From: a virus
DNA: 64,000 bases
Strand: one strand, 5' to 3'
Virus record (IMG/VR): IMGVR_UViG_3300002307_000021
Location: 32,001 to 96,000 of that record
Each line of letters starts with the position of its first letter. Position 1 is the stretch's first letter. Below the pieces are notes generated by a model. That model saw nothing but the letters and a program-made list of their open reading frames with translations. It was not told the origin of the DNA and searched no databases. The position numbers were made by a program, and so were the translations under genes. This document shows positions 1,645 to 45,216 of the stretch, piece after piece.

Positions 1645-4305
1645 TTATTCAAAAGAAAATAGGTTATCAAACGTGGTTGCAATCTGGGTATTCTCACTGA
1701 TGCTCCACTTGAGAACGCCCAGTAAGTTTTCTACCTTTTGATCAACGATACCTGTTTCCATACTAGCGTCGTCAAATGGTAATTCTTTAAACCAATTAGG
1801 TAAGTGTGCTTCATCAGTTGGATAACCAACTGAATTATACCCAAGTGGATTGTCTTTGAGTTTACATACAATGGTCTTCATACCATCAACAATACTAGTT
1901 GAATAGTTATCACCATGCATACGTTTTAGATTGTTCCAGTTCATTGCGGCGCGAACGTGTCCTGGCATATTAGCTTTGCCTAGGCGTTCTTCTTCTTTGG
2001 TATACTTGGTCAAGTTGTTTACACGTTTAGGTGTGCCTTTCTCCCAAGCCGGACGTTCTGTAAATATCAATTTGAACTCACGTACTTTGTCAATGATACT
2101 CTCACGTTGTGTACCTGTAAGAACATCCATTAAGATCTCACTTAAGAAGTCCTGGATAACTTTAGGAGTATCTGAACGTTTTAAGTCTAGACCCATGGCT
2201 TTTACTTTGCCCGGTTTGTCGTGTGTGTCTAGACGCTTACCTTCCATGTCATAGATCAGCACAGCATAACGTTTCTTCTTAATAAACAGACCTTTAAGTG
2301 CTACTAGTTCACGTCCGCCTTTGATAAGTTCACCTTGTTTGCGTGGAGTATGGAATACTCGTTCACAAAATGCTGGAAAACTCTCATTAACTCTGTCAGC
2401 GATAGTGTCGTATAGTTGTACAGCGATGTCTTTGTTCCATTCCATCTTGCCCGATTCAACTTCTTCTTTGATGATAGGCCATGCACTAAAGTAACACGAG
2501 TCAGTATCACCGTAGATAATAGCTTTACCTACATGATCATACTCGCCAGTGATGCACTCATTAATATAAGCATCCATGTGACGGGCGATCGTACGACCCG
2601 TAAGAGTAGTCGACTGGCCAATTCTTTTATCAAAAAAGCGACACCCAGGGTTGAGAATAGCACCGTATAAGCTGTTGAGGTTAATCTTTTTGACAAGTTG
2701 TCGCTTATCCCAAAACGCGATATCTTCATTAGTAGTTGCTTCCTTCTTTTTAGCCTGCATTTCTTTACGTTCAGCATACCAACGTTCAAGTAATCCTGGA
2801 ATAACACCCTTGCGTTCGTTGCTAAAGATAGTACCATTGGCACTGATAATCCAACTCTTATTACTGTCAAAGATTAAACGCCAAACGTCCGCGGCACTTA
2901 AGACATCACTGGTTCCATTTTCCCAGTCGATAGTTATTTCAGTCCCTACTTCGCCTTTCATTACAGCATCGTATTCTAAACTGCCAAATAAACCTTCCCA
3001 TGCATCAGCAAACTTACCTCCGTTTTCACGCATTTTGTCACTGATGTAACGGTCTGTCATAGTCTGACGTAGTTGGCCTACGATGGTTTCTGGACCCATG
3101 TTAAGTGCGCGAATAGCACTTGGATATAGTGAGTTAATGTCAACTGCGCCAATGTAGTCATGCATACCTGCTTTAGGAGTAGCTACATACGCACCTGCGG
3201 CCTGTGTGTTTTCTGTTTCATCACGGGTACGATTTGGAACAACCATACCAAGTTGATGTGCTTCGTTGATAATTGCCTGCTCTGTAACTGCCACAGCACC
3301 CATGGTCGTTTGTAGTAGCACAGTATTATCATGCGCCAACTCGTTGGCTAGATCTAAGAAGCGTAGTTTCTTATCTAACTTAGCTACAATCATTGTATCT
3401 TGACGATTGTACACAATGAACTTTTCAAAGTCTTTATTGTATAGTTGATCTAAGGTACCTTCGTACTGTGTTTTACGTTCGTCTAACTCATATTCACCAA
3501 TAGCATCCAATGAATAACTATGACGTTCTTCATAGGTATACTTACGATATAGTTGCATGTAGTCTAGATGCACACGACCAATAAGGTCAAAGGTTAAGTT
3601 ACTAGCACCAAAGCGTTCAAATTCACGTTGTTTAGGATACTGGCCCCATAGACAGTAACGACGGGTATCGTCTTTGCTTAGAACACGATTGGTACGCATG
3701 ACCATATACGGAATATCAAAGCCTTCACTGTTCCAACCACTTAATATGTCTGCGTCATCAATAAGATCTAAGAATGTATTCAGCAGGTCTTCTTCACGTT
3801 CCATTAAGAAACAGTTATCAAACTTACTACAGATCTCCTCAGCAGTTTCCCAACTCATACTCTTGGGAGGAACAACCATGGTAACTAGTTTATCTAACCA
3901 ATCTAAGTATACACTCACAGCGGTAATTGGATTAAACGGATCGTCTGGACGACTAAAGCCTCGCACTGGGTCAAAGTCAACCTCAATGTCGAAGAACGCT
4001 GTTTGTAGTTTAGGTGCCATCTGCCCTAGATAGTTTTCTTCTAGACAGCGGAATACAGGATTGATATCACTTTCCCAAGTCTTCTTACCCGAATTAATTC
4101 TTACTTCTTTATGGAATTCTTTACCTACTTTAGTACTGAAACGTGACACAGGGGTGTCATAGATAGTGCGAAATTTACCTTTAGGATCGTCATAATAGAA
4201 AACATAGTTAGCAGGATATTCTTTATACTCTCTCTGCCCGTTTGTTCTCTCAACGATATAGATGCGATCTTTATTACGATCAAATAGTGCGTCGATGTAA
4301 CTCAT
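1645..4305 (-). CDS. family B DNA polymerase (T4 gp43-like)
   Basis: ExoI FDIEV, ExoII WNSEGFD, ExoIII YNRQD; polymerase motifs DINSLYPS, KINLNSLYG, YGDTDS, KKRY. Confidence 0.97.
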   Translation of the reverse strand: MSYIDALFDRNKDRIYIVERTNGQREYKEYPANYVFYYDDPKGKFRTIYDTPVSRFSTKVGKEFHKEVRINSGKKTWESDINPVFRCLEENYLGQMAPKLQTAFFDIEVDFDPVRGFSRPDDPFNPITAVSVYLDWLDKLVTMVVPPKSMSWETAEEICSKFDNCFLMEREEDLLNTFLDLIDDADILSGWNSEGFDIPYMVMRTNRVLSKDDTRRYCLWGQYPKQREFERFGASNLTFDLIGRVHLDYMQLYRKYTYEERHSYSLDAIGEYELDERKTQYEGTLDQLYNKDFEKFIVYNRQDTMIVAKLDKKLRFLDLANELAHDNTVLLQTTMGAVAVTEQAIINEAHQLGMVVPNRTRDETENTQAAGAYVATPKAGMHDYIGAVDINSLYPSAIRALNMGPETIVGQLRQTMTDRYISDKMRENGGKFADAWEGLFGSLEYDAVMKGEVGTEITIDWENGTSDVLSAADVWRLIFDSNKSWIISANGTIFSNERKGVIPGLLERWYAERKEMQAKKKEATTNEDIAFWDKRQLVKKINLNSLYGAILNPGCRFFDKRIGQSTTLTGRTIARHMDAYINECITGEYDHVGKAIIYGDTDSCYFSAWPIIKEEVESGKMEWNKDIAVQLYDTIADRVNESFPAFCERVFHTPRKQGELIKGGRELVALKGLFIKKKRYAVLIYDMEGKRLDTHDKPGKVKAMGLDLKRSDTPKVIQDFLSEILMDVLTGTQRESIIDKVREFKLIFTERPAWEKGTPKRVNNLTKYTKEEERLGKANMPGHVRAAMNWNNLKRMHGDNYSTSIVDGMKTIVCKLKDNPLGYNSVGYPTDEAHLPNWFKELPFDDASMETGIVDQKVENLLGVLKWSISENTQIATTFDNLFSFE

Positions 4306-9948: not shown

Positions 9949-10030
9949 AGTCTTTTCTGATAAATAATAGTGTAGTTCACGATACTGGTAATATCCAACT
10001 ACCCTAATACTGTTAAGGAGTATCAGCTTT

Positions 10031-10657
10031 ATGTTATTTATCACAAACAAATATACCACCTGGTATAATAATATTATCACACAAGCACAACTTAGATCGC
10101 TGCCAATTAATGTTTATTTTGAAAAACATCATATTATTCCTAAATCAATGGGAGGTAACAATGCTAAAGATAACCTTGTTGGTCTAACCGCAAGAGAGCA
10201 TTTTATCTGTCATTGGCTACTAACTAAAATGACAACAGGCGAAGCAAAACATAAAATGATATATGCAGCTTGGTCTATGGTAAGAAAAGGTAGAGGACAA
10301 GAACGCTACAAGATGACAAGTAGGACTTATGAGTCATTAAGAAAACAACTCTCTGAAACTAAACGAGGAAGAACACCTTGGAACAAAGGAAAAACACATT
10401 CAGCAGAAACAAGAGCAAAAATGTCTGCAGACAGGAAAGGTAGAACGCCGTGGAATAAAGGATTAGGCGGAACTTATGAGTTTAGCGACGAAGCTAAACA
10501 AAAAATGTCTACAGCACAAAAAGGAAGAGTGTTCTCAGATGAACATAGACTTAAATTGTCACTTGTTCAAAAAGGTAAACCTAAGTCAGAAGAAACAAAA
10601 AGAAAGTTATCAGAAGCCATCAAAGCAAAACACGCCGCTAAACAGCAAGGAAAATAA
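10031..10657 (+). mobile_element. free-standing HNH homing endonuclease with NUMOD3 repeats, opposite to operon direction
   Basis: EKHHIIPKSMGG..NLVGLTAREHFICHWLL; PWNKG and HSAETRAKMS repeats; late promoter GATAAATA 9959-9966; AAGGAG SD. Confidence 0.92.
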
Positions 10658-10658
10658 T

Positions 10659-10739
10659 TGCTCACTTTTGGCATCCCTCCAGGCCAGCAGCCGGCCACAC
10701 CAAAACCGCTACGGATAGCGGGCCTAAGGTAGGTGTTCT
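10659..10739 (+). ncRNA. candidate structured ncRNA made of rRNA-like segments (decoding-centre mimic); strand uncertain
   Basis: GC-rich island in AT-rich DNA; GCCAGCAGCCG, GCCGGCCACACC and CGGGCCTAAGGTAG segments; stems GGCC/GGCC, ACACC/GGTGT, CCGCTA/TAGCGG. Confidence 0.6.
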
Positions 10740-10838
10740 TTACGACAGTATTACAGTAAACACAATAAACCAAGACCAAGCAACAAGTCCAACTACTATG
10801 GTCAATGGTAAATTGTCAAAAGTAAGATATTCTTTCAT
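10740..10838 (-). CDS. 32 aa single-pass membrane peptide
   Basis: MKEYLTFDNLPLTIVVGLVAWSWFIVFTVILS*, starting 1 nt after the upstream stop; below the track cut-off. Confidence 0.55.
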   Translation of the reverse strand: MKEYLTFDNLPLTIVVGLVAWSWFIVFTVILS

Positions 10839-45000: not shown

Positions 45001-45216
45001 CTATCTTCTGTAGGTAATTCTTGCTTTGGTAAGATCATATGGGGTCATTTCAACGTCGACTTTATCTCCCAAGATAATCTTAATAGTGTGCATACGCAGT
45101 TTACCACCAATGTATGCGATTACTGTATGATCATTTTCTAGTTTAACACGGAACATGCTATTACCTAGCACTTCTTCTACTATTCCTGAAAGTTTAATAA
45201 CGTCTTCTTTTGCCAA
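45001..45216 (-). CDS. infA: translation initiation factor IF-1
   Basis: MAKEDVI...FRVKLEN...I.GK.R...[25 protein letters not shown]; TTG start. Confidence 0.96.

Follow-up and report, generated by a model that had tools for sequence, protein, structure and literature searches.

Does a phage carry an RNA modelled on the host ribosome? The question was raised by a spacer at positions 10659-10739 of a 64,000-nucleotide stretch of viral DNA, referred to here as the window. The original prediction described this spacer as a compact non-coding element assembled from look-alikes of three ribosomal helices (16S h18, 16S h44 and 23S H69-H71). A + strand RNA acting as a decoy for defence toxins or translation factors was proposed, with an antisense RNA made from the - strand operon as the alternative.

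The window comes from an IMG/VR virus record of 158 kb with an estimated completeness of 45%. It contains a T4-type DNA polymerase and virion genes, and almost all of its genes lie on the - strand. The spacer has no ORF in the ORF list, as had been stated, and is flanked by two stop codons. On one side, an HNH/NUMOD3 homing-endonuclease gene on the + strand (10031-10657) ends with a TAA at 10655-10657. On the other side, a hydrophobic 32-aa ORF on the - strand (10740-10838) has its TAA stop at 10742-10740 and ends at the element. This ORF is probably a real gene for a small membrane peptide, because it is conserved with the related locus L006, where 94 of 107 bases are identical. The description of the spacer as a GC-rich island was partly right. 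Its GC content was raised (0.53 versus about 0.40 in the surroundings), but the rise was modest and comparable peaks were found close by. ARAGORN found no tRNA or tmRNA. The folding energy of this single copy remained at the level of shuffled sequences, with z values of 0.0 on the + strand and +1.0 on the - strand.

The family and its fold

The spacer is one copy of a widespread, undescribed family of structured RNAs in large T4-like and jumbo phages. Two degenerate patterns run over the viral collection gave at least 120 matches each, and a second class of the P3 hairpin described below was reached through the word CAGCAGCCGC. At least 234 members on phage contigs were parsed, of which at least 192 were distinct, so the homologues expected in related phages do exist. 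The 20-base core GGCCAGCAGCCGGCCACACC had 53 exact matches in viral contigs. Among bacterial genomes (596 Gb) it had five, all in unrelated GC-rich coding DNA. A 24-nt pattern taken from the P2/L1 region of the window copy itself found no second exact copy. The element was present once per genome in six large records (149-354 kb), including a complete phage of 352,754 bp with terminal repeats.

No known family matched the window or the element. Rfam 15 gave no match over the whole window at the gathering threshold, and with E values up to 10 the best match within 10600-10800 was Actino-ugpB, with 16.3 bits versus a threshold of 42.5. Nothing was found on the element at 12 other member loci. 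A search of 50,697 GenBank phage records, by megablast with the locus and by blastn with a representative element, gave no match. In the literature on rRNA mimics, on H69 and phages and on T4 intergenic motifs, only papers on promoter-early stem-loop (PeSL) cassettes were found, and no description of the element. As a separate observation, positions 1-234 of locus L007 (- strand) hold a group I intron (Rfam RF00028, 58.9 bits) that is truncated at the end of the locus, about 3 kb from the element copy there.

The fold was derived from a covariance model (R1) of 101 positions, built from 29 relatives with the window excluded. R1 gave exactly one full-length match in each of 100 loci. In the window it matched 10657-10743 with the + strand of the model over positions 1-101 of 101 (48.5 bits, E = 2e-10). 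In the R1 alignment 86.9% of the paired cells were able to pair, versus 61.8% in shuffles. Cells changed on both sides numbered 449 versus 153 in shuffles, and none of 500 shuffles reached 449. The covariation score was 0.447, versus at most 0.085 when the partners were slid, and changes on both sides occurred in 18 of the 21 pairs. These values support four helices, and they bear out the claim of a conserved, structured non-coding element.

Three to four helices make up the fold. P4 and P3 are followed by P1, and P1 encloses P2 where P2 is present. The whole element spans about 10654-10742. It and all of its parts are assigned here to the - strand, the putative transcript strand, and are quoted in the sense of the rRNA-like + strand unless stated otherwise. 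In that sense the order is an A/T-only flank, the tail GCUCACUU, P4, P3, P1 (enclosing P2 and a loop) and a pyrimidine-rich tail, UUCUUA.

The A/T-only flank (10654-10659) overlaps the TAA of the HNH gene. It reads ATAATT in the window and A-W-W-A-N-T in the family, with almost no C at positions -6 to -1 and T at -1 in 79% of 196 distinct loci. On the - strand it forms a U-rich stretch after GUGAGC. The adjoining single-stranded tail (10660-10667) is invariant; its + strand sequence is GCUCACUU, corresponding to AAGUGAGC at the 3' end when the - strand is read. Its identity was 98-100% in 100 aligned members. It was present in all 234 parsed members, but it was also part of the search patterns.

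In the window, P4 has a degenerate short form (10669-10681) with the stem TGG/CCA and the loop CATCCCT, which is shared with L002, L004, L006 and L016. Most relatives have a longer, two-part stem with the loop GUAGCGAAU, GCACGACU, a GUUCCGG-like sequence or UGGCGUAA (110 distinct members). Its outer and inner stems (helices 1 and 2) covary.

P3 (10682-10696) has the stem GGCC/GGCC and the loop AGCAGCC, which reads GGCUGCU on the - strand. The loop and its closing C-G pair are invariant and identical to 16S 519-527 (columns 90-100, 99-100% conserved), and an exact 10-mer match begins at 16S 518. The two outer pairs covary (GC/AU/CG). The general form is NN(C/G)C-AGCAGCC-G(G/C)NN, and the second class is NGGC-AGCAGCC-GCCN. 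The P4 and P3 region of the window resembles 16S 505-527 (GGC-N-CUCC-N2-GCCAGCAGCCG), with a local alignment over 511-527. A 3-bp GGC/GCC pairing as in 16S 505-507/524-526, with both sides invariant, is possible from the sequence. By eye, the invariant loops of the class to which the window belongs showed no convincing complementarity for pseudoknots.

P1 (helix 4) pairs ACACC at 10697-10701 with GGTGT at 10732-10736, as had been predicted, and all five pairs change on both sides across the family. Within it, the predicted hairpin CCGCTA-CGGA-TAGCGG forms P2 (10706-10721, helix 5), which also covaries. P2 is missing from about 25 members, and its loops vary (CGGA, ACAAG, ACUAG, AGA and others). 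In the window, P2 on the - strand is followed by UUUUGG and received a terminator-like score in a terminator scan. The loop L1 (10722-10731) reads G-CCUAAGG-UA, with CCUUAGG on the - strand. CCTAA is conserved at 94-99% and GG at 86-91%. The family consensus, GGUCCUAAGG(UAG), also written (G)GUCCUAAGG(UAG), is identical to 23S 1921-1933, with an exact 13-mer match at 23S 1921; the window is one base off this consensus, with G for U1923. The pyrimidine-rich tail (10737-10742; UCUUUA, or UAAAGA on the - strand; T-rich columns 168-174) holds the TAA of the 32-aa ORF. On the + strand it gives P1 a U-rich, terminator-like ending.

Ribosomal words in the element

When compared with the rrsH and rrlH genes of E. 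coli MG1655, the three predicted rRNA matches were found where they had been placed. GCCAGCAGCCG (10683-10693) is identical to 16S 517-527, GCCGGCCACACC (10690-10701) matches 16S 1401-1412 at 10 of 12 positions, and CGGGCCTAAGGTAG (10719-10732) matches 23S 1920-1933 at 13 of 14. Mononucleotide shuffles of the window copy reached its 23S score in 14 of 500 cases and its 16S score in 31 of 500. Each match alone was therefore reached by 3-6% of the shuffles, and the joint match that had been stressed was never reached (0 of 500). Taken alone, the window copy resembles rRNA only weakly beyond chance.

At the family level the likeness is clearly not due to chance. The best + strand match to 23S fell within 1800-1990 in 182 of the 192 distinct members, and the best match to 16S fell within 495-535 in 162 of the 192. 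When the conserved blocks were shuffled, the exact matches were reached in 4, 367 and 1769 of 20000 cases, and jointly in none of the 20000. As a side observation, AGCAGCC (10686-10692) and GCUCACU (10660-10666) also occur as exact 7-mers at 23S 1070-1076 and 1099-1105. Both sites lie inside the 58-nt GTPase-associated region with their order swapped, possibly by chance.

The words held invariant in the family are C-AGCAGCC-G (16S 519-527) and CCUAAGG, usually as GGUCCUAAGG(UAG). The proposal that the rRNA-identical words are the conserved part was thus upheld for the 530-loop word and for CCUAAGG. The h44 match did not survive. It is one strand of P1, and its sequence is free (ACACC, AUACAC, ACUCG, AUUUGG, CUUCAC). 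Mimicry of h44 was ruled out because the P1 helix covaries while its sequence is not conserved.

The H69 likeness fared between the two. P2 takes the position relative to CCUAAGG that H69 has in 23S. It is near-identical to 23S 1908-1930 in L256, L266, L237 and L018, and several members, including L256 (over 23S 1908-1941), L266 and L018, carry a near-exact H69. However, members can lack the hairpin and its loop varies, and H69 mimicry as a selected feature was ruled out. With a variable h44 word and an H69-like hairpin that some members do without, selection is not maintaining a decoding-centre surface. The original caveat that G530, A1492/A1493 and the H69 loop (A1913 and the pseudouridine positions) are not reproduced was borne out, and the P3 match stops at 16S 527/528.

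The conserved unpaired words are rRNA pieces in permuted order, and the variable loops copy other words of 23S domain IV. In the largest subclass (class a), the first nine bases of the P4 loop GGUAGCGAAUC equal 23S 1929-1937 (GGUAGCGAA), and therefore L1 and this loop (L4 class a) together spell a contiguous 23S 1921-1937. In another subclass, the P4 loop (A/C)UGGCGUAA equals 23S 1971-1978 and is complementary to GACGCC(UG) after P3, which corresponds to 23S 1826-1835. UGGCGUAA and GACGCCUG are the two strands of 23S helix 67 (H67). A small hairpin, an H69-like hairpin and CCUAAGG then follow in the order of 23S domain IV, and the 3' continuation has been shifted upstream. Internal pairing of the rRNA-like loop UGGCGU with ACGCCA occurs in one class, and some rRNA words therefore serve the fold of the element itself. 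This use fits descent from rRNA, or structural imitation of it, as well as antisense action. The P4 loops GCACGACU and GUUCCGG-like, which are found in about a third of the members, had no significant rRNA match.

Strand and gene context

In about 95% of loci, the neighbouring genes are read from the strand that does not carry the rRNA-like words. Of the right flanks, 210 of 216 had their coding sequence within 1.5 kb on that other strand, as did 208 of 231 left flanks. The element tail contains the stop codon of an upstream - strand ORF (at least 60 aa) in 77 of 149 loci. Promoters showed the same bias. Within 45 nt of the element in 196 loci, a late-type ATAAATA box occurred 39 times on the - strand and never on the + strand, and a sigma70-type promoter 41 times versus 3; those on the - strand lie beyond the element and come with a Shine-Dalgarno sequence. 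Promoters beyond the element were present in at least 80 of 196 loci; otherwise a start codon follows at 6-20 nt. On the + strand, no position-specific promoter signal was found at any fixed distance in the 196 loci, and in compact loci the region upstream is the antisense of a coding sequence starting 6-20 nt away.

The loci L141 and L142 have a convergent + strand gene. Between it and the element lies a GC hairpin with a T run that resembles a terminator (identified by eye). Transcription of the + strand would thus stop short of the element; read from the - strand, the gene comes first, then the element and then the terminator. The hairpin (GCCCC-loop-GGGGC) has A and T runs on either side and lies beside the GCTCAC end. 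In L141 the convergent gene is an ORF of 194 aa, in L142 a hydrophobic one of 229 aa.

Base-pair statistics gave a less uniform picture. Across the alignment, A.C cells on the + strand (60) outnumbered G.U cells (32), even though the alignment had been fitted to the + strand; in P1 alone, these counts did not favour the - strand. The - strand folded more stably in 112 members, versus 76 for the + strand (p = 1e-4), to which its higher G content may contribute.

The element thus lies opposite to the rRNA-like sense of its words, has no promoter of its own, and has gene-strand promoters beyond it. On this anatomy the element RNA is most likely part of a - strand mRNA that carries the complements of the rRNA words. 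Of the two options originally offered, the antisense RNA from the - strand operon is the one favoured. No canonical terminator was found at the - strand end of the element. An intrinsic terminator would have a GC-rich hairpin and an adjoining U run kept across relatives; here P2 can be missing, relatives do not keep the U run, and downstream genes without promoters start 6-20 nt after the element. Neither promoter type adjoins the window copy, because the HNH cassette is inserted there.

Clustering of the neighbouring proteins gave 71 groups; a fatty-acid desaturase, a glycosyltransferase, an IscA-type protein and a radical SAM protein are among them. The RNase-like neighbour pointed out in the original prediction and the 32-aa ORF are therefore not in a conserved system with the element, and a functional link to either was rejected at the family level. 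A Ro60/TROVE partner was also rejected, as there was no TROVE gene in five records. The commonest downstream gene (40 loci, for example L007:3039-3302) encodes an 86-96-aa protein (phrog_12534 / phrog_639, 'transcriptional regulator'), possibly the counterpart of T4 dsbA. An 87-aa version of it matches phrog_639. Genes of this type have their own sigma70-type promoter and a strong Shine-Dalgarno sequence. Several flanking proteins start with MRAxE-type leaders, and the same leader type is seen in the window.

The IF-1 (InfA) homologue of 71 aa is encoded on the - strand at 45001-45216, 34 kb from the element. All six large element-bearing records encode IF-1, with PF01176 scores of 71-84 bits in the other five. 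Element-bearing phages may simply be relatives, and this co-occurrence is therefore a lead and not evidence.

Possible action of the element and its alternatives

Our tentative reading, to which we give limited credence, is a 3'-UTR or intercistronic RNA whose loops would pair with host rRNA. The element would be transcribed with the - strand genes, beginning at the upstream stop codon and ending before the next promoter or start codon. Its exposed hairpin loops would carry complements of rRNA. These are CCUUAGG and GGCUGCU, to which relatives add AUUCGCUAC. Among the - strand words, GGCUGCU complements 16S 520-526, CCUUAGGAC complements 23S 1922-1930, and AUUCGCUAC (class a) complements 23S 1930-1937. 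At the sequence level, the loops thus have the exact complementarity to defined targets that is typical of loop-mediated antisense RNAs. The partners in kissing-loop pairing could be the universally conserved stretches 23S 1922-1937 and 16S 520-526, either in free subunits after termination and recycling or in nascent rRNA. Because the element directly follows a stop codon, subunits would be freed nearby. Subunits might be held near the phage mRNA, or host ribosome assembly or subunit joining might be disturbed. The invariance of the loops over hundreds of diverse phages argues for a universally conserved partner, and the universality of the target words would let a single element act in any host.

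A more specific proposal, which we consider possible but doubtful, is a dedicated anti-rRNA element of large T4-like phages. This multi-loop part of the mRNA would kiss the 16S 530 loop and the 23S H69-H70 junction, and would capture, hold or disable subunits or their precursors; as a variant, it might serve as a splint or shield against ribosome-cutting defence nucleases. If the loops do pair with rRNA, this would be the first known phage RNA to address the host ribosome through its RNA. It would also offer a testable route to ribosome takeover or protection by jumbo phages, which carry IF-1 and other translation genes.

Several known systems share parts of this design. CopA/CopT, RNA I/RNA II and OxyS-fhlA are antisense RNAs that recognise their targets by hairpin loops, and OxyS-fhlA forms a two-loop kissing complex. 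The conserved 7-9 nt loops of the element on stable stems are similar, and L1 and L4 class a are complementary to the adjacent 23S segments 1922-1930 and 1930-1937. In contrast to those RNAs, the proposed target is rRNA and not an mRNA or a replication primer, the element is embedded in an mRNA, and the proposed pairing is one of sequence complementarity. In eukaryotic viruses, TURBS motif 1 of caliciviruses and the BYDV-type 3' cap-independent enhancers are complementary to rRNA and are thought to tether subunits. They too belong to mRNAs, lie in a 3'-UTR or where termination meets reinitiation, and complement part of the small-subunit rRNA. However, they use one short motif against 18S only, whereas the phage element has 16S and 23S words and lies downstream of a stop codon. 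The leaders of r-protein operons (L1, S8, L10, L20 and others) mimic an rRNA site in the sense orientation, upstream of the gene whose product binds them. The element resembles them as a short fold copying an rRNA site in sequence and local structure. It differs in being antisense to the local genes, in having no link to an r-protein gene, and in combining several rRNA sites in permuted order.

In mature subunits the target bases are paired or buried: the 530 pseudoknot contains 524-526, and the stem of H69 contains 1921-1924. Together with the rRNA words that serve the element's own fold and the third of P4 loops unrelated to rRNA, this makes descent from captured rDNA the main rival. The same - strand element would then make no rRNA contact. 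It would be a module for mRNA processing, stability or insulation, or a dock for a phage or host protein, and its likeness would come from captured rDNA (23S domain IV and 16S h18) that was permuted and trimmed. We consider this, too, a possibility of modest weight. Native rRNA pairings are kept inside the element (the H67-like UGGCGU/ACGCCA, the H69-like hairpin and the possible GGC/GCC), the H69 likeness decays differently in each lineage, as in a relic, and the P4 loop classes differ. On the other hand, a plain stabiliser or terminator needs no three word-perfect unpaired motifs across hundreds of divergent phages, and among the 71 flanking clusters there is no linked candidate for a binding protein.

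The position of the element also suits such a module, as it sits in the niche of the terminator/promoter cassettes of T4-type phages (PMC4122927, PMC2839356), with promoters beyond it in many loci. These PeSL cassettes are short, occur in many copies per genome, and combine a terminator hairpin with an early promoter (Arbiol et al. 2010, PMC2839356; Comeau et al. 2014, PMC4122927). Like a PeSL, the element is an intergenic module of T4-like genomes that separates a gene end from the promoter after it. It lies in variable regions that also carry auxiliary genes, and it may be a point of modular exchange. Unlike the many PeSL copies of hyperplastic regions, it occurs once in each of the six records, and it has three to four covarying helices with invariant loops, rRNA words and no promoter of its own. 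In place of a terminator joined to a sigma70 early promoter, - strand sigma70-like promoters were found in 41 of 196 loci and late-type ATAAATA boxes in 39, and the - strand end lacks a canonical terminator.

Even if the likeness reflects only ancestry, the family ranks among the most widespread and best-conserved unannotated non-coding elements of large phages, and it is a clear case of rDNA fragments captured, permuted and kept. The family model also provides a marker for this phage group and explains a recurrent insertion point of homing endonucleases.

The + strand decoy of the original prediction now appears unlikely. It would be a small RNA imitating the 530 loop, the H69/H70 junction and H67, and drawing off a ribosome-binding factor, a modification enzyme or a toxin. 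The rRNA-sense words and rRNA-like local folds are on the + strand, as is the U-rich tail after P1. In the window and in L131, a + strand HNH gene leads directly into the element, and IF-1 accompanies the element in all six large records. Against this stand the opposite gene strand, the near-absence of + strand promoters, the antisense position of the upstream region in compact loci and the hairpin ahead of the element in L141 and L142, in addition to the missing decoding-centre bases and the unconserved h44 word.

Least probable is a DNA-level site, in which the element would be a landing or homing site of an endonuclease or a recombination cassette, and its rDNA likeness would reflect the target preference of rDNA-type homing endonucleases; an endonuclease gene of this kind adjoins the element at just 2 of about 234 loci, hairpin-preserving compensatory changes are unexpected for a double-stranded protein target, and the strict orientation to transcription points to RNA. 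At those two loci, the element DNA does seem to be a landing site for the HNH/NUMOD3 family. In comparison with the endonuclease-free L006 and L036, about 700 bp with the HNH/NUMOD3 gene are inserted exactly at the GUGAGCAA border in the window, and in L131 a homologous HNH gene (3521-4045) adjoins an element of a different subclass. The matching segment 23S 1917-1951, a classic insertion zone for introns and endonucleases, also counts for this alternative. The cassette in the window (9950-10658) is free-standing and has an ATAAATA-type box on its own strand near 9962-9969.
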